From positions 3,904,001-3,968,000 of the forward strand of contig CM000150.2 of the NCBI GenBank assembly GCA_000004695.1: a stretch of DNA of 64,000 nucleotides. Direction: 5' to 3'. Numbering within the stretch: the first letter of the stretch is position 1; the number at the start of each line of letters is the position of its first letter. This document shows positions 18,815-64,000 of this stretch, piece by piece. Origin of the DNA: Dictyostelium discoideum (Eukaryota). The notes under the pieces were generated by a model, which did no database searches, had not been told where the DNA came from, and worked only from the letters and a program-made list of their open reading frames with translations. Position numbers and translations under genes: made by a program.

Positions 18815-19640
18815 TAAAAAAAAAAAAAAATATAAATCTCTATATAGTGGTTGTTGTTGTTTATAAAAAAAATAAAACAAATAAAATAAAAAAAAAAAAT
18901 TAAAAAAAAAAAAAAAAAAAAAAATTTGAAAATTAAAAAAGTGAAGTTATTTTTGGTTATTTTTTTTTTTTTTTTTTTTTTTATTTGATTTTTTATTTTT
19001 TTATTTTTTATTAAAATTCTCTTTCCCCAAAAATTTTTTCCATTTTTTTTGAGGGAAAAACTAATAAAAAATAAAGAAAAAAAAAAAAAAAAAAAAAAAA
19101 TCAAAACAATTCCCACTTTGAAAAAAAATGAAAAAACAATTAAAAAAAAAAAAAACCTAAACCCAAATCCAATTTTAATACAAATGCTCGAAACTCAAAA
19201 TCTATAAATTCCAAAATTTTTTTAATTTTTTTTTTTTTTTATTTCTTACTTGTACAAAAGCTCGGTTTTAGATAGATATTTTAATAATTGATTTTTATTT
19301 TTTTCTTTTGTTTTCGTGCAATGATTGGTTTTTATTTTAAAAATTTTTTTTCCAATTATTTTACCCAAAAAATGAGAAAAATCACAGAATTTGCGCTTTT
19401 GGATATTTTCATTTTGGAAAACTACGTCATGAAAATTATAAAATGATGAAATTAATCGGATTTTTTTATTTCTTTACCAAAAAATTTTTTTTTATAAATA
19501 GGGGATCGTTTTTTTAAAAAAAAAAAAAAAAAAATAATTTATTTAGTTAAACCAAAATAATTTATTTAAATCCATAAAAAATACAAAAAAATAATAATTA
19601 TAATAAATAATAAATTTATATTATAAAAAAAAAAAAAAAA

Positions 19641-22025
19641 ATGAAACAAATAATTTTCATTTTTTTAACTCTATTTATTTCATTAATATTTTCCGAATCA
19701 TCTGTTTATAATAAATTTGAATTCTTAGGCGAAGGATGTTCAGATTTTGGTGATAATTTAACAATTTCAAATTGCCAACCTTTATGTACCAACCATTTTG
19801 CTTCAATTTCACCAAGTAGTTCTATTTCCAATGGTTTTGATATTATTTTATATAATAATTCAGATCAATCATGTAATGTACCACTAATTCCAACCTTAAA
19901 TTTTACTTGTCTTGATAATGAGACTCCAGTTAAATTTGAAGATTTTGCAGTTATTTGTCAACAACAACAACCACCACAACCAGTATCAAAATTTATTAGT
20001 TTCCAATTTTTAGGTGATTCATGCCCAGATAATGGTGATTATTTAAATGTTTCTAATTGTCAAAATGCATGTGGAACTGATTTAATTTCAATTTCTCCAA
20101 GTCCAGATGTAACAGATGGTTTCATTGTAAATTTTTATAATTTAACTGATACTCTTTGTAAAACACCAATTGCTAATGATGTTTTCCAATGTCAAAATAA
20201 TGTCAGTGAATCTATAATTAATGATGGTACTAATGAATTTGATATCTATTGTAGTACCACTGTTCCAACACCAGCTCCATTACCATCTCCTTCCCAATTT
20301 ACTAGATTCTTATTGTATGGTGATTCATGTCCAGATAGTGGTCAATATTTAAATATTTCAAATTGTCAAAATACCTGTGGTACTGATCTCGTTTCAATTT
20401 CTCCAAATCCAACTGTTACTGATGGTTTCCTTGTAAATTTTTATAATTTAACTGATACTCTATGTAAAACCCCAATTGGTAATGATGTTTTCCAGTGTCA
20501 AAATAATGATACCGAATCAATAATCAGTGATGGTGATAATGATTTTGAATTATATTGTGAATATCCAGCAACATTATCCCCATTACCAACAAAAACTCCA
20601 TCACCAACTCCTTCACCAACTCAATCACCAACTCCTTCACCAACTCCTGCCCCATCAAAATATAATGAGTTTGAATTATTGGGCGATAATTGTCCTTCTG
20701 CTGGTGATCAAGTTGTAATTGGTCTTTGTCAAAATGCTTGCAATTATAGATTGGTTAATATTATTCCAAGGGATGATGTTTCTGATGGTTTTATCATTGA
20801 GTACTATAATATTACTGATACTTATTGTCAAACTATTTTAGATACAGACGAATTCCAATGTTCTGCCAGTACTTCAGTTGTTGATTTGTTCAATATTAAT
20901 TGTGAAGCTGTTACTCCTGCACCTCCATCTCCAACTCCAAATCCTTCAAATGGTAATATCTTTGGATTTTATGGTGATTATTGTCCTTCTGCTGGTGATA
21001 GACTTGAAGTTGGACTTTGTCAAAATGCTTGTAATTATAAATTACTTAGTATCATTCCTAGTGACGATGATAATGAATCTTTTAATGTTCAATACTTTGA
21101 ATTAAATGATACCTATTGTCAAACCGTTGTTGATAATGATTATTTCGAATGTGCAGATGGTGAATCAAATATTGATGATTTCCAAGTTAATTGTTTAGTA
21201 ACCCCATCACCATCACCAACTCAAACTCCTTCACCAACTCAAACTCCAACTCAAACTCAAACTCCAACTCAAACTCCAACTCAAACTCCAACTCAAACTC
21301 CAACTCAAACTCCAACTTCAACTCCATCAAGATATAATTATTTTGAATTCTATGGTGATAATTGTCCAGAAGATGGTGATTATTTAGAGGTTGGTCTTTG
21401 TCAAAATGCATGTGATTATTTAAGAGTTAGTATCATTCCAAGACAAGGTGTTACTGATGGATTTACTGTTCAATATTATAAATTAAATGATACAGTTTGT
21501 GATAATCAAATTGATTCTGATGTTTTCCAATGTTCAGGTAGTGCTTCATCTATTGATTATTTTGATATTTATTGTGATGTTTCTACACCATCGCCAACTG
21601 AAACAACAACACCAACCCAAACACCAACTCAATCTCCTTCAACATCAGAATATGATGGTTTTGATTTTTATGGTCAAGTTTGTCCAACCACTGGTTATAA
21701 TCTTACAGTTGGAAATTGTCAAAATCTTTGCGACTATAGAAGAGTTTCTATTATTCCATCCGAAATAACTCAAGATGAATTCCAAGTACAGTTTTATCAA
21801 GTTTCAGATAAAAAATGTGCAAATGTTATTGAATCTTCATCATTACAATGCAATAATGGTGGTAACTCTACAACAATTGATCAATTTAACATTTATTGTG
21901 AAAAATCTTTTACCCCAACTAATACATCCTCTAATTCAAGCCATGAAAATATTGGTTATAAATTTGAAACTAATAATTTATTAATATTACTTTTATTGTT
22001 AATTTCAATTTTTATTTTTTATTAA
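19641..22025 (+). CDS. secreted, probably GPI-anchored, cell-surface glycoprotein with 7 tandem Cys-rich repeats (about 85-95 aa each) separated by Pro/Thr/Ser mucin-like linkers
   Basis: N-terminal signal peptide MKQIIFIFLTLFISLIFS. Seven repeats of pattern F.F.GD.CP..GD.L.V..CQN.C....L.SI.P...V.DGF.V.YY.L.DT.C.T.....D.FQC.......ID.F.I.C. Linkers PTPSPTQSPTPSP and (TQTP)n. Many N-x-S/T sites. C-terminal hydrophobic tail NLLILLLLLISIFIFY. Single exon. Confidence 0.7.
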   Translation: MKQIIFIFLTLFISLIFSESSVYNKFEFLGEGCSDFGDNLTISNCQPLCTNHFASISPSSSISNGFDIILYNNSDQSCNVPLIPTLNFTCLDNETPVKFEDFAVICQQQQPPQPVSKFISFQFLGDSCPDNGDYLNVSNCQNACGTDLISISPSPDVTDGFIVNFYNLTDTLCKTPIANDVFQCQNNVSESIINDGTNEFDIYCSTTVPTPAPLPSPSQFTRFLLYGDSCPDSGQYLNISNCQNTCGTDLVSISPNPTVTDGFLVNFYNLTDTLCKTPIGNDVFQCQNNDTESIISDGDNDFELYCEYPATLSPLPTKTPSPTPSPTQSPTPSPTPAPSKYNEFELLGDNCPSAGDQVVIGLCQNACNYRLVNIIPRDDVSDGFIIEYYNITDTYCQTILDTDEFQCSASTSVVDLFNINCEAVTPAPPSPTPNPSNGNIFGFYGDYCPSAGDRLEVGLCQNACNYKLLSIIPSDDDNESFNVQYFELNDTYCQTVVDNDYFECADGESNIDDFQVNCLVTPSPSPTQTPSPTQTPTQTQTPTQTPTQTPTQTPTQTPTSTPSRYNYFEFYGDNCPEDGDYLEVGLCQNACDYLRVSIIPRQGVTDGFTVQYYKLNDTVCDNQIDSDVFQCSGSASSIDYFDIYCDVSTPSPTETTTPTQTPTQSPSTSEYDGFDFYGQVCPTTGYNLTVGNCQNLCDYRRVSIIPSEITQDEFQVQFYQVSDKKCANVIESSSLQCNNGGNSTTIDQFNIYCEKSFTPTNTSSNSSHENIGYKFETNNLLILLLLLISIFIFY

Positions 22026-22897: not shown

Positions 22898-23960
22898 ACT
22901 ACTTAAATTGGAAGAGGGTTCGGAGCTGCTGGGGTTTGCCAGGCTTTGTTGAATTTGTATTTGTGAAGATCTTGATTGGTGTTTTTTAGTATTGCTTCGT
23001 CGTGTTTGATTTTCTTTAGTGTGATGAATTTTTCAGTTTCGATGAGATTTAGTTATTCTGTTTCTATGACCTTTTGTTCGAATTTTGGCTCTGGTTTGCT
23101 TTCATCAGTGTTGAACAATTTGTGACAGATTATCTTCCATAATTGGTGTGCTATTATTCCTATGAGATTGGGGAAGATTCTCTCAGTTCTGTTGTATTTT
23201 GATATGTCTAAGGTATCCATCGACCATCTGTGGATTTTGATGAATGATAATTTGTTAACTGTTGATATGATGGTTTTTTCAATATCTAGGATATCTTGGC
23301 ATAGAGTGAAGAGGTGAGAATAAGGGTCTCTGAATAGGTGGCCACAGATCTTGCATCTGGTGTCTCTTTCGTGGTTGATACCTGGAAGTGATCTTGAGAA
23401 GAATCTGAAGAGGGTGTTTCTACCTTTTTGGTGAGAAATGCTGTTGATGTTTATGAATACTTTGGGTATTGCTGTGTTGTATCTCACCGCCCATAACTTC
23501 TGCCATTCTGTTCTTCTTGGTGTTGGGTGTCTGTCTTTGATCATGAGTTCGTAAATTTCTTTCAGTTTTAGTGGTTCGTCATTGTCGTTTCTTATACAGT
23601 CTGGAAGTTCATTTATCTTTGGATGGTTTTGGTAAAATTTGACTCTGAATACACCCCAGTGTCTGCACATATCGTTGAGGGTTGAAGTGTGGGCTTTTTT
23701 TCTACTTAATTGCTCCGTGTACCATTCTTGTAAGGTATTGTTGTTGTTGTTGTAGTTGTTATGGAGTAGCCTGTTCATGTACCAGATTTTGAATGCTATA
23801 TGTCTTAGTTCTATATCCCATAATTTTATGCCTCCTTCTTTCCAATCTGCATATGCTCTGTCTATTTTCATCATAGTTTTGTATTTTCTCTCTTCTGTAT
23901 ATGTATTCTTAACTGAGGAGAATAAGAACCATCTGGTCATGTTAAATTTTGTTTAAATAA
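22829..23960 (-). mobile_element. 5'-truncated non-LTR retrotransposon copy (tRNA-gene-targeted TRE-like element): ORF2 C-terminal region, 3'-UTR and poly(A) tail
   Basis: Plus strand shows a 66-nt T run at 22829-22894, which is the poly(A) tail of a minus-strand element. A roughly 160-nt GC-richer 3'-UTR follows. Minus ORF 23053..23940 contains the Cys/His motif typical of LINE ORF2 C-termini (CKICGHLFRDPYSHLFTLC). Local G+C is clearly above the genomic background. The element abuts a tRNA gene. Confidence 0.65.
23053..23940 (-). CDS. retroelement ORF2 C-terminal fragment (Zn-knuckle-like CKICGH...HLFTLC)
   Basis: 295-aa ORF inside the retroelement fragment. No homolog in the rest of the window. 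Confidence 0.5.
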   Translation of the reverse strand: MTRWFLFSSVKNTYTEERKYKTMMKIDRAYADWKEGGIKLWDIELRHIAFKIWYMNRLLHNNYNNNNNTLQEWYTEQLSRKKAHTSTLNDMCRHWGVFRVKFYQNHPKINELPDCIRNDNDEPLKLKEIYELMIKDRHPTPRRTEWQKLWAVRYNTAIPKVFININSISHQKGRNTLFRFFSRSLPGINHERDTRCKICGHLFRDPYSHLFTLCQDILDIEKTIISTVNKLSFIKIHRWSMDTLDISKYNRTERIFPNLIGIIAHQLWKIICHKLFNTDESKPEPKFEQKVIETE

Positions 23961-24008: not shown

Positions 24009-24022
24009 TTGTTAAAAATATA

Positions 24023-24095
24023 TGAGATAGATGGGGATCGAACCCACGACCTAACCCGTGTGAAGGGCTCGTGATAACCACTACACTACTTTCCC
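24023..24095 (-). tRNA. tRNA-Val (anticodon CAC), 73 nt
   Basis: Minus strand GGGAAAG TA GTGT AGTGGTTA TCAC G AGCCC TTCACAC GGGTT AGGTC GTGGG TTCGATC CCCAT CTATCTC A. Canonical D-loop (AGTGGTTA) and T-loop (GGTTCGATCC). Anticodon stem AGCCC/GGGTT, loop TTCACAC. One A-A mismatch (positions 5 and 68) and one G-U pair in the acceptor stem, so functionality is not certain. Confidence 0.6.
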
Positions 24096-24299
24096 ATAGG
24101 CTGGAATGTTATCCTAAAATTTTTGGGAATTTTTATGATTCTTTTGTAATAATTTAATAGTTAATATTAATCACTATCAATCGGACCGCATCAATAAAAA
24201 GAAGACTCGAAAAATTCAGCCACAACTGGAACTCGAAACTCATGACCATAAAAATCCCGGAACACTTCATACCATACTGCTCATATAACACCAACTACT

Positions 24300-29878: not shown

Positions 29879-32251
<2,373 letters not shown>

Positions 32252-59576: not shown

Positions 59577-62500
59577 CTATTGTTTTAATAAATTTAATAC
59601 CATTTGTTCAGTAATATTCCAACCATCATAAGAACCAAAAGAAATTAAAAGTGATTTTGTATTTTTTGAAATTTTAAATTCTTTAGACATGTGATATTTT
59701 GTGGGAGTAAAATCTAAAGGATGAAAAGTTCTTAATCTGATACAAGTTTTATCATTTGATTCTGAAATCATTTTTTTCCAATTTATTAAAGTGGTTTCTT
59801 TGTAATTAAAATTTTTTTTTATCATTAGAAATATTTCATTTGTTGTTTGCAATTCACCATTTAATGAAATAATATTTAAAGTATTTATTTTTGTTTTTGA
59901 CCAACAACCTTCATTAAAGATTAAATTAATAATATTTTGTGCTACCCATGTTACTGGACTAATAAATAATGAAGTTGGTTCAATTGGGAAATATTTAGTA
60001 ACACTAATGGATTTAATTATTAATTGAAGCAAATCTCCACTATGACCAATACCAGTATGTGGATTTGAAAATATTGATGGTAATCTAATTGTCATTGCTG
60101 GAATACCTCTTGATGATGCTTCTAATAGTAAATGTTCACAGATAAGTTTACTTTGAATATAGCCACCTGGTAAATTATTTAAATTACTTAATGAAGGTAT
60201 TCCAACTTGGTATTCATCAAATTCGATTTCATCATTTAATTTTTGACCAAAGAAAATTGAAAATGAAGATAAATTTACAATTGGTATCATTGGTTTATTT
60301 GTACCTTTCGAAACTGATAGCTTTATAAACTCTTTAGTTGAGTCTACATTGGTTGGTTTAATTTCATCATAATTTGCATTTAAATTAATATCAGCACCAC
60401 AACTTAAAATTAAATTTACTTGATTTGAAATTTCTAAATACATTTTATCAGATAATCCAAGTTTACTCTTTCTTAAATCTCCACGGACTGGGAAAATCTT
60501 TTCCAATTCTGATTGTTCAAACATTTCAAATAATTTATGGTGTTTTAAATTGTCAATTATTTTATTCATTAAATCGATTTGGTCAGATAAATGACCTGAT
60601 CTTGTTAAACAATAAATTTTTGAACAGTTTTTCATTTTTACTAAATTCAATAAAAGATAACCTCCTAAAAATCCAGTTGAACCACTTAATAATATAACTT
60701 TATCCATTTTATTATCAATAATTAAATCTGATTTAATTGATGATGCAATTATTGTTTCATCTAATTTTGCTTCATTCTTCCAATATTCAAATGTTTTTGT
60801 TGTTGTTGTTATTTCATTGGTATTATTAACCACTGTACTACTTTTATTTTTACCTTCTTTCTTTTTATCTAATGAATTTGTTATAATTTTAATTGATGAT
60901 GAAATTGTATTTGTTTGAAGTTGTTGAATTGTAATAATATTACCTGATAATTCTTTATCTACCCAATTTTTTAATTGAACGATTGATAAAGAATCAGCAC
61001 CATATGCAGAAAGTTTAATATCGATATTAATCTTTGATATTTCAATTGATAATACCTCTGAAACTTTCTCTAAAAACATTTGATTTACAGAGTTTTTATT
61101 ATCCTGATTACCATCATGACCCAATTGATTAACTTTATTCTTTTCTTCTAAAGAAACTTGATAATCAATCTTTGAAAAATTATTTTTTTGTGGATTATAT
61201 TTTGTTATATTTGAGAAATTAAAACTTGAAACTATTAAATTTGTTGATAGTTCTTGATTTTGGATTTGTAAATCTAATGAACCTAAAATTGTATTGATTG
61301 AAAGTGGATTGAATCCTAAATTTTCAAACATTACTGAAACATTTTCATTTCTTGATACAAATCCAGTTGATTTTATTAAACCATAACTTGTGCAAATTGA
61401 TGGTAAGCCAAGTGATTTTCTATACTGTGAGAATGATTCTAAAACATTATTTGCACAAACATAACTACATTGGCTTTCAGAACCTAATGATGAGGTAACT
61501 GATGATGCAATTATAAAGTTTTTTAATTTCCATCCCCTTTTAATTGATTGATCGTGTAAAATGATTGCACCAATTGTTTTTGCGCCAAATGAAATATCCA
61601 GAGTATCCATATTGATAGCTTCTACATTCTTTGTTATTTGATGGAATGCATAGTGGAATATTGAATCAATGTTATCAATATCATTTGAAACTTCATCGAT
61701 TGCTTTTCCCATCGAGTTTATATCACCAACATCAACGCTCTTGAAATGAAATTTTATATGTTTATTTCTATTTACTAATAGTTCTAACTGCCATTTCATT
61801 GATGATTTTGAAAGGATAATTATATTTTCAACTAATGGCGCAAATTTAACTATCCATTTTATAATTTCAAAAACTATACCAGATTGACCAGTAACTATTA
61901 TATTCTTTCCTAAATTATTTATATTGATTTGATAATTTGATTTTAATAATGTAAAATCTAAATTGGAAGTTGAATTGATTTTCTCCTTTATTAAATTACC
62001 CACTAAATCTGTATCATGATTAACAACAATTTTACCAATATGTTTACGTTGATTAATATATTCAAATGCATTTTTAATATTAACATTTGAATATTGAGTT
62101 ATTGGTAAATTATTAATTAATTCATTATTTTCAATTGCTTTTGATATTGATTTTAATAATTTCTTTAAAATTGGTGCAGCTATAAAAAGTAATTCTACAT
62201 TATGATAACCATAGTTGAATTTAAATTTCTTATTATCAATATACTCATTTGAATTCAAATGAGTGATTGATAAATCTACAATTCTACCACTTTTTGAAAG
62301 ACAATTGAAATTTGAATCCATATAATCACTTGATAATGTATTTAATATTAAATCTACACCTGTTTTATCCGAGCCTAATTCTTTAAGTTTATCTTTTATT
62401 TTTTGAACATAACTCTTATCTCTTGTTGAATAAATACCTGTAATTAAAGATCCATAGGTGTCACGTAGATATTTCTCTTTCTCTGGTGATCCAACTGTAA

Positions 62501-64000
62501 GGAAAATATAAGAACAATGACCTTTCCATTTTAAAATATTTAATGAAGATAAACCAACACCACCGGATGCTGAATGAATTAAAATTGATTCATAATTTTT
62601 TAAATTACCAATATTGTAAATACTATGAAGAGATGTTGAATAAACTACTGGTATTGTTGATGCTTGTTCATGACTTAAGTTATTTGGTTTAAAATAAATT
62701 GAACCTGAATCTATAATAGATTTGGATGATGCAGTGTTATATGCAGTACCATAAACTTGGTCACCAACTTTAAATTCACTACAATTGTTTTTGGATACTC
62801 TTGTAATGACACCAGAAAAGTCACTACCAAATTCTGGGTCATTAATATCACCCGTTTTATGATTGACCATTTCAGGTGGCACACTTCCAATGTATGTAAG
62901 ATAATCTTTATAATTTAATGCAAATGATTTAATTTCAACTTGGACTTCAAATGGTTCTAAATCTTTTGTCATTGGTTTTAATTCATATTCTAAATTTGGT
63001 GATAAAACTGCTACTAAATCATTTTCAACTAAATCTTGATATGATTCAGATTTGAATTTTTTTCTAAGATTTTGTTCTTTCTTTATTCTTTCAAAATAAA
63101 CTTTACCATTTCTAATTAAATATTCTTTTTGAATAGATATTTTCTTATCTGTTAATAATTCAATCAATGATACTAAATTCTTTTCATTATTATTATGAGT
63201 GTATTCAATAATTGATTCTTTATCGAAATCTAATGTGAATAGTTGTAGTTGTTGAAATTCATCGAAATATCTTGCAGCACCTATAACTGATGATGCTAAA
63301 TAATTATCTTTTCTTGAATCTGATGTTATCAATACATGTTTGCACATTGAATTAAGTTTTAATAGTTTTCTATTAATTTCTATGTATTCAAATGTAATTG
63401 ATTTAAAATTATCCAATGTTAATTGTTCCATTGTTTTTATAAAATAAATCACAGATTTATCGGTTATTGATTGTTTTTCTACAAATTCATTAAATTTACT
63501 GATTGTTGATATTATACTTAATATCTTGTCATCAGTTGATTCTAGTGATTTTAAAAATTTATTACAAATTTCACTGTCATCATTACTATAAATTATAATT
63601 TGATCATAAGAGTCTATATTTGGATTTGGTGATAATTCTGATAGTAATTGTGGTTTTCTTGTTTGAATGATTGATTTTTTATCATTTGAAATGATTGTAT
63701 CTTTAAAATTACATTGATCTAATAACTCTTTTATTTCAATTAAGTTATTTCCATCATTATTTATTAATATTAATTGACCATTTGGTACCATTAAATTATA
63801 AATCATATAAAGTGTAGCCTTAATATCATTTGTTTCCTTTTCTAAATCATTTATTAATACAATATCATATTGTGAAGGTTTTAATTGATTATCTTCGAGT
63901 AACAAAGGATCATTAATGCTATAATCTCTATAAAGTATGCTAACACGTTCATTGATGTGTGATAGTTTATCCTTGATTGATGAGGTTAATGATTGTGGGA
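59577..64000 (-). CDS. type I polyketide synthase, 3'-terminal portion (methyltransferase tail, ER, KR, ACP, NAD-dependent terminal reductase domains); continues beyond window end
   Basis: The minus-frame ORF runs open to position 64000. ER/MDR motif HSASGGVGLSSLNILKWKG. KR Rossmann NIIVTGQSGIVFEI. ACP phosphopantetheine site KLSAYGADSLSIVQLKNWV. Terminal reductase GSTGFLGGYLLLNL...YIQSK. Upstream continuation ...NDPLLLEDNQLKPSQYDIVLINDLE resembles a C-methyltransferase domain end. The track M at 63905 is a TTG, not a start. Confidence 0.8.
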   Translation of the reverse strand, partial: PQSLTSSIKDKLSHINERVSILYRDYSINDPLLLEDNQLKPSQYDIVLINDLEKETNDIKATLYMIYNLMVPNGQLILINNDGNNLIEIKELLDQCNFKDTIISNDKKSIIQTRKPQLLSELSPNPNIDSYDQIIIYSNDDSEICNKFLKSLESTDDKILSIISTISKFNEFVEKQSITDKSVIYFIKTMEQLTLDNFKSITFEYIEINRKLLKLNSMCKHVLITSDSRKDNYLASSVIGAARYFDEFQQLQLFTLDFDKESIIEYTHNNNEKNLVSLIELLTDKKISIQKEYLIRNGKVYFERIKKEQNLRKKFKSESYQDLVENDLVAVLSPNLEYELKPMTKDLEPFEVQVEIKSFALNYKDYLTYIGSVPPEMVNHKTGDINDPEFGSDFSGVITRVSKNNCSEFKVGDQVYGTAYNTASSKSIIDSGSIYFKPNNLSHEQASTIPVVYSTSLHSIYNIGNLKNYESILIHSASGGVGLSSLNILKWKGHCSYIFLTVGSPEKEKYLRDTYGSLITGIYSTRDKSYVQKIKDKLKELGSDKTGVDLILNTLSSDYMDSNFNCLSKSGRIVDLSITHLNSNEYIDNKKFKFNYGYHNVELLFIAAPILKKLLKSISKAIENNELINNLPITQYSNVNIKNAFEYINQRKHIGKIVVNHDTDLVGNLIKEKINSTSNLDFTLLKSNYQININNLGKNIIVTGQSGIVFEIIKWIVKFAPLVENIIILSKSSMKWQLELLVNRNKHIKFHFKSVDVGDINSMGKAIDEVSNDIDNIDSIFHYAFHQITKNVEAINMDTLDISFGAKTIGAIILHDQSIKRGWKLKNFIIASSVTSSLGSESQCSYVCANNVLESFSQYRKSLGLPSICTSYGLIKSTGFVSRNENVSVMFENLGFNPLSINTILGSLDLQIQNQELSTNLIVSSFNFSNITKYNPQKNNFSKIDYQVSLEEKNKVNQLGHDGNQDNKNSVNQMFLEKVSEVLSIEISKINIDIKLSAYGADSLSIVQLKNWVDKELSGNIITIQQLQTNTISSSIKIITNSLDKKKEGKNKSSTVVNNTNEITTTTKTFEYWKNEAKLDETIIASSIKSDLIIDNKMDKVILLSGSTGFLGGYLLLNLVKMKNCSKIYCLTRSGHLSDQIDLMNKIIDNLKHHKLFEMFEQSELEKIFPVRGDLRKSKLGLSDKMYLEISNQVNLILSCGADINLNANYDEIKPTNVDSTKEFIKLSVSKGTNKPMIPIVNLSSFSIFFGQKLNDEIEFDEYQVGIPSLSNLNNLPGGYIQSKLICEHLLLEASSRGIPAMTIRLPSIFSNPHTGIGHSGDLLQLIIKSISVTKYFPIEPTSLFISPVTWVAQNIINLIFNEGCWSKTKINTLNIISLNGELQTTNEIFLMIKKNFNYKETTLINWKKMISESNDKTCIRLRTFHPLDFTPTKYHMSKEFKISKNTKSLLISFGSYDGWNITEQMVLNLLKQ

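Follow-up and report, generated by a model that had tools for sequence, protein, structure and literature searches.

A seven-module Dictyostelium discoideum protein built from ponticulin-like six-cysteine domains, a putative surface glycoprotein

What kind of protein is encoded by a long open reading frame (ORF) of Dictyostelium discoideum that reads as a chain of cysteine-rich repeats joined by Pro/Thr-rich linkers? The ORF lies at positions 19641 to 22025 of a stretch of 64,000 nucleotides (GenBank assembly GCA_000004695.1, contig CM000150.2, positions 3,904,001 to 3,968,000 of the forward strand), which is referred to here as the window. An earlier note, made from the letters of the window, had described a large secreted protein of seven tandem six-cysteine modules with mucin-like Pro/Thr (PT) linkers and a glycosylphosphatidylinositol (GPI)-type tail, and had left the module without a family. 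On the basis of the comparisons presented below, we propose that the module is a ponticulin-family domain and, with a probability of roughly 0.7, that the protein is a GPI-anchored, N- and O-glycosylated surface glycoprotein of this family, arranged as "beads on a mucin string".

The gene is a complete single-exon coding sequence on the plus strand (19641..22025, 794 codons plus TAA), as is all that is described of it below. It was taken from the ORF list, and the same gene model is present in GCA_054883475.1, which is a different strain from that of the window. The product contains 42 cysteines, that is, six in each of seven modules of 81-87 residues. Modules R1 (aa 23-106, 19707..19958), R2 (aa 118-204, 19992..20252), R3 (aa 220-306, 20298..20558), R4 (aa 341-421, 20661..20903) and R5 (aa 438-518, 20952..21194) were delimited by Cys pattern and alignment, supplemented by BLASTP for R1 and by the DNA comparison between R2 and R3. 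They are followed by R6 (aa 565-645, 21333..21575), the copy used for structure prediction, and R7 (aa 671-753, 21651..21899), the copy nearest to the single module of the relatives P0003 and P0004 discussed below. The Cys spacing is C-x11-C-x3-C-x28-C-x10/11-C-x13-19-C; the x10 and x~35 given earlier for the first and third intervals were slightly off. In the numbering of the 87-residue module R2, which heads the alignment, 15 positions are invariant in all seven modules (F4, G8, C11, G15, C23, Q24, C27, I34, P36, F44, D53, C56, C67, F83 and C87). The shared skeleton proposed in the earlier note therefore holds at these positions, whereas the remainder of it is only a majority consensus.

Pairwise identity between modules is 32-76% at the protein level and 48-84% at the DNA level. 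R2 and R3 are the closest pair, R4, R5 and R6 form a second group, and R1 and R7 are the most divergent. In BLASTP comparisons among the modules, all 42 ordered pairs matched, the weakest being R1-R5 (46.6 bits, E 9e-13), against a best score of 29.6 bits among 700 shuffled modules. As every pair matches well above the shuffles, the repeat structure is real, and the seven-module description of the 794-codon ORF is upheld. R2 and R3 had been called near-identical and the result of a recent duplication, which is an overstatement: they share 84% of their DNA over 263 nt (longest exact run 31 nt) and 76% of their protein sequence, with 0.14 nonsynonymous (dN) and 0.36 synonymous (dS) substitutions per site. 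No additional copies of the module were found elsewhere in the window by tblastn.

The family of the module could not be read from domain libraries. A search of the whole protein against Pfam-A at E <=1 gave only two unrelated matches below threshold, a scan module by module agreed with it, and the Pfam models for spore-coat proteins, for the prestalk ecm repeat and for CBM49 had no match in the protein. In a search with the full-length protein the PT linkers dominated, and the only two matches, bacterial or metagenomic, were irrelevant; a word-indexed search with the seven-module alignment returned none. A HMMER profile of the seven modules, searched against 1.84 billion representative proteins, gave 12 matches. 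Half of these are Dictyostelium proteins (P0003, P0004, P0007, P0009, P0012 and P0013); the other half (P0005, P0006, P0008, P0010, P0011 and P0014) are repeat proteins, which we rejected as false positives. P0013 was found at E 2.6e-4, and its 90% cluster includes the UniProt entries "Ponticulin-like protein C1" to "C5" (PonC).

The relation to PonC was analyzed further by profile-profile comparison using hhalign. The alignment of the modules matched an alignment of PonC-type sequences only with a probability of 96.6% (E 5.8e-10), and the mature PonC domain alone with a probability of 97.0% and a score of 58.5. By comparison, 200 column shuffles scored 10.6 +/- 2.3 (maximum 21.1) and the reversed alignment scored 11.6. 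Moreover, the six Cys columns are common to the seven modules, PonC, P0012 and P0009 (DDB_G0271702). Because the hhalign controls were passed and all six Cys columns coincide, we assign the module to the ponticulin family as a homologue of PonC1-5; both the seven-module architecture and the family assignment are well supported. PonC and its relatives have no Pfam match above threshold either, and for this reason neither the earlier note nor Pfam was able to name the module. The claim that it is unassignable is thus not supported: no Pfam model covers it, but it is homologous to a named UniProt family. The earlier note had also allowed that a profile search might place the module in a well-described family: a named family was indeed found, but it is poorly described, lacking both a Pfam model and a closely related solved structure. 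Family membership applies at the level of the domain, since the small single-domain form (~15-17 kDa) is not matched by a protein of 794 residues and seven domains.

Structure prediction is consistent with this assignment. AlphaFold2, run on module R6 with an alignment of 18 sequences, gave a model with a mean predicted local distance difference test score (pLDDT) of 93.4 and a predicted template modelling score of 0.81, composed of eight beta-strands and no helix. In the model of PonC (P0013) the domain, with a pLDDT of ~90, also has eight strands, and the helices of the model are confined to the signal peptide and the C-terminal tail. When the two models were mapped onto each other via the alignment, the eight strands were in register, and the DSSP state was the same in 85% of the 80 shared columns. 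The predicted fold is a small beta-meander sheet or barrel, and all seven modules are predicted to be compact all-beta domains of eight strands. A Foldseek search of the module model against the PDB gave nothing at E <1, so that the fold appears to have no close solved relative, and when the module profile was compared with PDB sequences, the H-type lectin region of discoidin-1 (E 0.43) was the sole match.

Hydrophobic segments are found only at the two ends of the protein (aa 1-17 and aa 780-794). The N-terminus MKQIIFIFLTLFISLIFSES (aa 1-20, 19641..19700) is of the signal-peptide type, as judged by hydropathy and by small residues at -3/-1: MK is followed by a 15-residue hydrophobic core (aa 3-17) and by S18-E-S20, and the 15-residue Kyte-Doolittle mean peaks at 2.85 (aa 4-18). 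Cleavage would be expected after S20, possibly after S18, and the first module would begin about 3 residues past this site, as in PonC by sequence rules. At the other end, hydropathy points to a C-terminal GPI-type signal (aa 754-794, 21900..22022), in which a Ser/Thr/Asn-rich stretch is followed by N770-I-G (21948-21956), a 7-residue spacer and a 15-residue hydrophobic tail LLILLLLLISIFIFY (21978-22022). The hydropathy of the tail at aa 780-794 is 3.21 and no residue lies beyond it; N770 is a candidate omega site, chosen by rule of thumb. It is important to mention that both end assignments are predictions from sequence rules.

The linkers between the modules are 11-46 residues long and comprise 173 residues in total, with a composition of 25% P, 25% T and 16% S and with repeats that include (TQTP)n and (SPTP)n. 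Linker 3 (aa 307-340, 20559..20660) is PT/PS-rich and shows a 12/24-bp periodicity in its DNA at 20594-20648, and linker 6 (aa 646-670, 21576..21650) is PT-rich by composition. The longest linker (aa 519-564, 21195..21332) holds the (TQTP)n tract. The origin of this tract in a 12-bp tandem repeat, proposed in the earlier note, was confirmed: the unit ACTCAAACTCCA encodes TQTP and is repeated over ~21234-21313, within a Tandem Repeats Finder array at 21216-21326. The mature polypeptide has a mass of ~82 kDa, is acidic (isoelectric point, pI, ~4) and carries 18 N-x-S/T sequons, 15 of them within modules. The signal-type N-terminus, the mucin-like composition of the linkers and the GPI-type signal at the C-terminus together support a protein of the secretory pathway that is extracellular and can be heavily glycosylated, and to this extent the earlier interpretation is upheld. 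In Dictyostelium, mucin-type O-glycosylation in the Golgi is begun by a GT60 polypeptide alpha-GlcNAc transferase, and GPI biosynthesis is present (PMC3188802).

Taken in order, these features suggest how the product may be made. The signal peptide would direct the chain into the endoplasmic reticulum, where the six cysteines of each module may form three disulfides and the 18 sequons may receive N-glycans. In the Golgi, the PT linkers would acquire mucin-type, O-GlcNAc-initiated glycans and become stiff spacers, and the C-terminal tail would be swapped for a GPI anchor. The result would be seven beads on a mucin string at the outer face of the plasma membrane, an extended multivalent array that could offer binding surfaces for contacts between cells, with the substrate or with the matrix, or that could join the cell coat. 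A role in surface adhesion or in the cell coat is thus the function that we infer as the most likely one, given a GPI anchor and glycosylation that are themselves putative.

Several points weigh against the reading of the protein as a ponticulin-family surface glycoprotein. Four of the false positives (P0005, P0006, P0008 and P0010) outrank PonC by E-value in the hmmsearch list, so that the E-value of PonC is weak by itself; the case for the ponticulin family rests on the hhalign controls and on the structure comparison. The models of R6 and PonC come from one common alignment, and hence their agreement is not fully independent. Additionally, the homology detected is to the PonC type, and the link from PonC to the founding ponticulin, PonA, would follow from UniProt naming and from PMC4920372. 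The C-terminal tail may be a terminal transmembrane anchor. Finally, no multi-module orthologue of the gene was found in the annotated proteomes searched, so that conservation is that between two strains. The clustered protein collection lacks the exact protein as well as its neighbours, and the negative fits both lineage restriction and gaps in the libraries.

The main rival is a protein that is released rather than anchored, a glycoprotein of the matrix, the slime sheath or the spore coat whose tail is removed or whose anchor is cleaved and whose modules cross-link the matrix. In its favor, matrix and coat proteins of Dictyostelium usually pair Cys-rich repeats with mucin-like PT tracts. In the close relatives P0003, P0004 and P0015 a PT linker leads into a single module and no hydrophobic tail follows, so that the module is also used in presumably soluble secreted proteins; moreover, PonC is abundant on secreted multilamellar bodies (PMC4920372). 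On the other hand, the C-terminus is built as in the anchored members of the family, and no Pfam model reached its curated threshold, so that no known spore-coat, prestalk-repeat or cellulose-binding domain was detected. We consider this shed form unlikely, though by far the most serious of the alternatives to an anchored surface glycoprotein. It is improbable that the modules are instead degenerate H-type lectin domains of a carbohydrate-binding protein, like the C-terminal domain of discoidin I. Such a relation is weakly suggested by a Pfam H_lectin match on R7 (PF09458, E 0.012) and by the PDB profile match to discoidin-1 mentioned above, but the former reached 16.2 bits against a cut-off of 24, and on one module only. 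The lead was dropped, being below threshold and with H-type lectins absent from the Foldseek matches.

We regard as slightly more improbable still an action like that proposed for classical ponticulin, in which beta-strands of the modules enter the plasma membrane and connect cortical F-actin to it. The 15 of 18 sequons within modules, the six conserved cysteines of each module, the mucin linkers and the pI of ~4 argue for a luminal or extracellular location, there is no hydrophobic segment between the two ends, and soluble barrels score as high as membrane barrels. Binding or nucleation of F-actin by an ectodomain array of this kind therefore appears implausible. The least probable alternative of all is that the gene is non-functional, either an ORF that arose by chance or an array of repeats in decay. 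It would be in keeping with the failure to find an orthologue of the same architecture in the protein libraries searched. However, a frame of 794 codons is very unlikely to stay open by chance in AT-rich DNA (the G+C content of the window is ~22%, and polyN/polyQ ORFs are abundant in it, as is usual in Dictyostelium), all 42 cysteines are still in register, and dN/dS is <1 in the closest repeat pairs. The gene is also called in a GenBank assembly: in GCA_054883475.1 its product is an identical protein of 794 residues and its DNA is 100% identical to that of the window. Overall, the two sequences are 99.6-99.9% identical, apart from numerous small indels and a single insertion of 2.4 kb; indels are present in the flanks of the gene, whereas the gene itself is unchanged. 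Together with a dN/dS of 0.40 between R2 and R3, this shows that the gene is under constraint.

If the anchored surface glycoprotein is accepted, a broader interpretation can be offered tentatively, although the odds are somewhat against it. The ponticulin-like module may be a Dictyostelium-restricted extracellular beta-domain, the ponticulin fold may be an ectodomain in general, and domain amplification may have given rise to the gene as a lineage-specific adhesin of the surface or mucin of the coat. For thirty years ponticulin has been an "atypical" membrane protein, GPI-anchored and yet said to reach the cytoplasm and to nucleate actin, and the 1994 model reportedly made it both GPI-anchored and membrane-spanning in order to bind actin. 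Here, the same domain appears to be used seven times in a setting that, as read from its sequence, can only be extracellular. If the fold is indeed an ectodomain, the 1994 topology model would need re-examination. The confident AlphaFold2 model of the module provides a testable handle on the topology and the real function of the ponticulin family. The adhesion repertoire of social amoebae would also gain a candidate glycoprotein of the surface or the matrix. If the protein is just one more uncharacterised surface glycoprotein, the gain is better annotation only.

The surroundings of the gene were also inspected. The ATG follows 17 consecutive A; the ORFs that read on the minus strand within the gene are artefacts of the repeats, and no RNA families or tRNAs were found to overlap it. 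Around it lie ordinary housekeeping genes (importin-beta-like, class-V aminotransferase, MFS transporter, DEAD/SPRY helicase, 14-3-3, choline-transporter-like and polyketide synthase). Upstream lies an ankyrin-repeat ORF in divergent orientation, and the intergenic region of 826 bp between the two genes (18815-19640) is almost pure A/T with few C-containing islands, e.g., AACCTAAACCCAAATCCAA at ~19155-19173. No C/G-rich developmental elements were assigned upstream of the seven-module gene when this region was read by eye.

Mobile elements can be suspected at several places. A tRNA-Val(CAC) gene is located at 24022-24096 on the minus strand. The other strain has an insertion of 2.37 kb (L001, 14465-16834), absent from the window, 30-46 bp upstream of this tRNA gene; it contains an ORF of 444 codons without a Pfam match and has a 17-bp duplication of window positions 24126-24142 at its flanks. 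It looks like a strain-polymorphic, tRNA-targeted retroelement, which we take to be of the TRE5 type. About 80 bp downstream of the 3' end of tRNA-Val, an ORF of 295 codons (23053-23940, minus strand) has no Pfam match and a C-x2-C...H...C motif, and may represent a piece of another retroelement associated with tRNA genes, in this case TRE3-like. The ORF of 790 codons at 29879-32251 (minus strand), in which Pfam recognizes only an N-terminal transposase-type helix-turn-helix (HTH_28, HTH_Tnp_ISL3), is probably a DNA-transposon gene. At the right end of the window, 59577-63905 (minus strand) encodes the C-terminal part of a large polyketide synthase with ER, KR and ACP domains and a terminal NAD_binding_4 reductase domain, and the gene runs past the listed ORF.

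How, then, does the seven-module protein compare with its named relatives? A literature search on the gene identifiers of the relatives found nothing useful, and the comparison is mainly one of sequence and architecture. The closest named proteins are PonC1-C5 of D. discoideum (UniProt Q54LC2, Q54LC3, Q54LC0, Q54LC1 and Q54LB9; genes DDB_G0286715-23). As in PonC, the signal peptide leads directly into the domain part, and the end is formed by a Ser-rich stretch and a terminal hydrophobic tail; unlike the seven-module protein, PonC has 147 residues, one domain and no PT linker, and its identity to the modules is only 22-29%. The plan of signal peptide, module or modules, Ser-rich stretch and hydrophobic tail is common to PonC, to P0012, a D. 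purpureum protein with a single module and tail, and to P0009. The last of these, DDB_G0271702 (Q75JB7), is an uncharacterised D. discoideum protein of 233 residues and the nearest multi-module relative found. It resembles the seven-module protein in its signal peptide, its tandem six-Cys modules (two) and its terminal hydrophobic tail, but its two modules are joined directly, without a PT linker, and are 22-28% identical to R6.

A second type of relative is represented by ACTFIZ_004877 (P0003, D. cf. discoideum), by P0004 and P0015 of D. citrinum and by P0007. In these proteins a PT-rich linker precedes one module, as it precedes R7, and residues 239-319 of P0003 are 47% identical to R7, the best sequence match to any module. 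They differ in having a single module, no hydrophobic tail and an extra, unrelated N-terminal Cys-containing domain, and are presumably soluble. Their order is signal peptide, N-terminal Cys-containing domain of ~150 residues, PT linker and one ponticulin-like module; the N-terminal domain has no Pfam or PDB sequence match. The AX4 entry DDB_G0268436 (P0007, 118 residues) looks like a truncated or frameshifted model of a gene of this type.

PonC is assigned to a family whose founding member is ponticulin itself (PonA). In PMC2290967 and PMC2290950 PonA is described as a 17-kDa actin-binding, glycosyl-anchored glycoprotein of the plasma membrane, with high-affinity F-actin binding and nucleation at the membrane; PMC2290967 also gives a cleaved signal sequence, a beta-rich prediction and a glycosyl anchor shown biochemically. 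The PonC proteins are described as similar to ponticulin (PMC4920372). PonA has a single domain, unlike the seven-module protein, and its proposed cytoplasmic actin-binding face is inapplicable to seven putatively glycosylated, disulfide-rich modules with mucin linkers.

In overall plan, the protein would resemble PsA and contact site A, GPI-anchored mucin-like glycoproteins of Dictyostelium in which a folded ectodomain is followed by a Pro/Thr-rich O-glycosylated stalk and a lipid anchor. Proteins of this type carry unrelated globular domains, and none is known to have seven tandem ponticulin-like modules. Whereas the ponticulin family is known already, though poorly described and without a Pfam model or a solved structure, the seven-module architecture is new.

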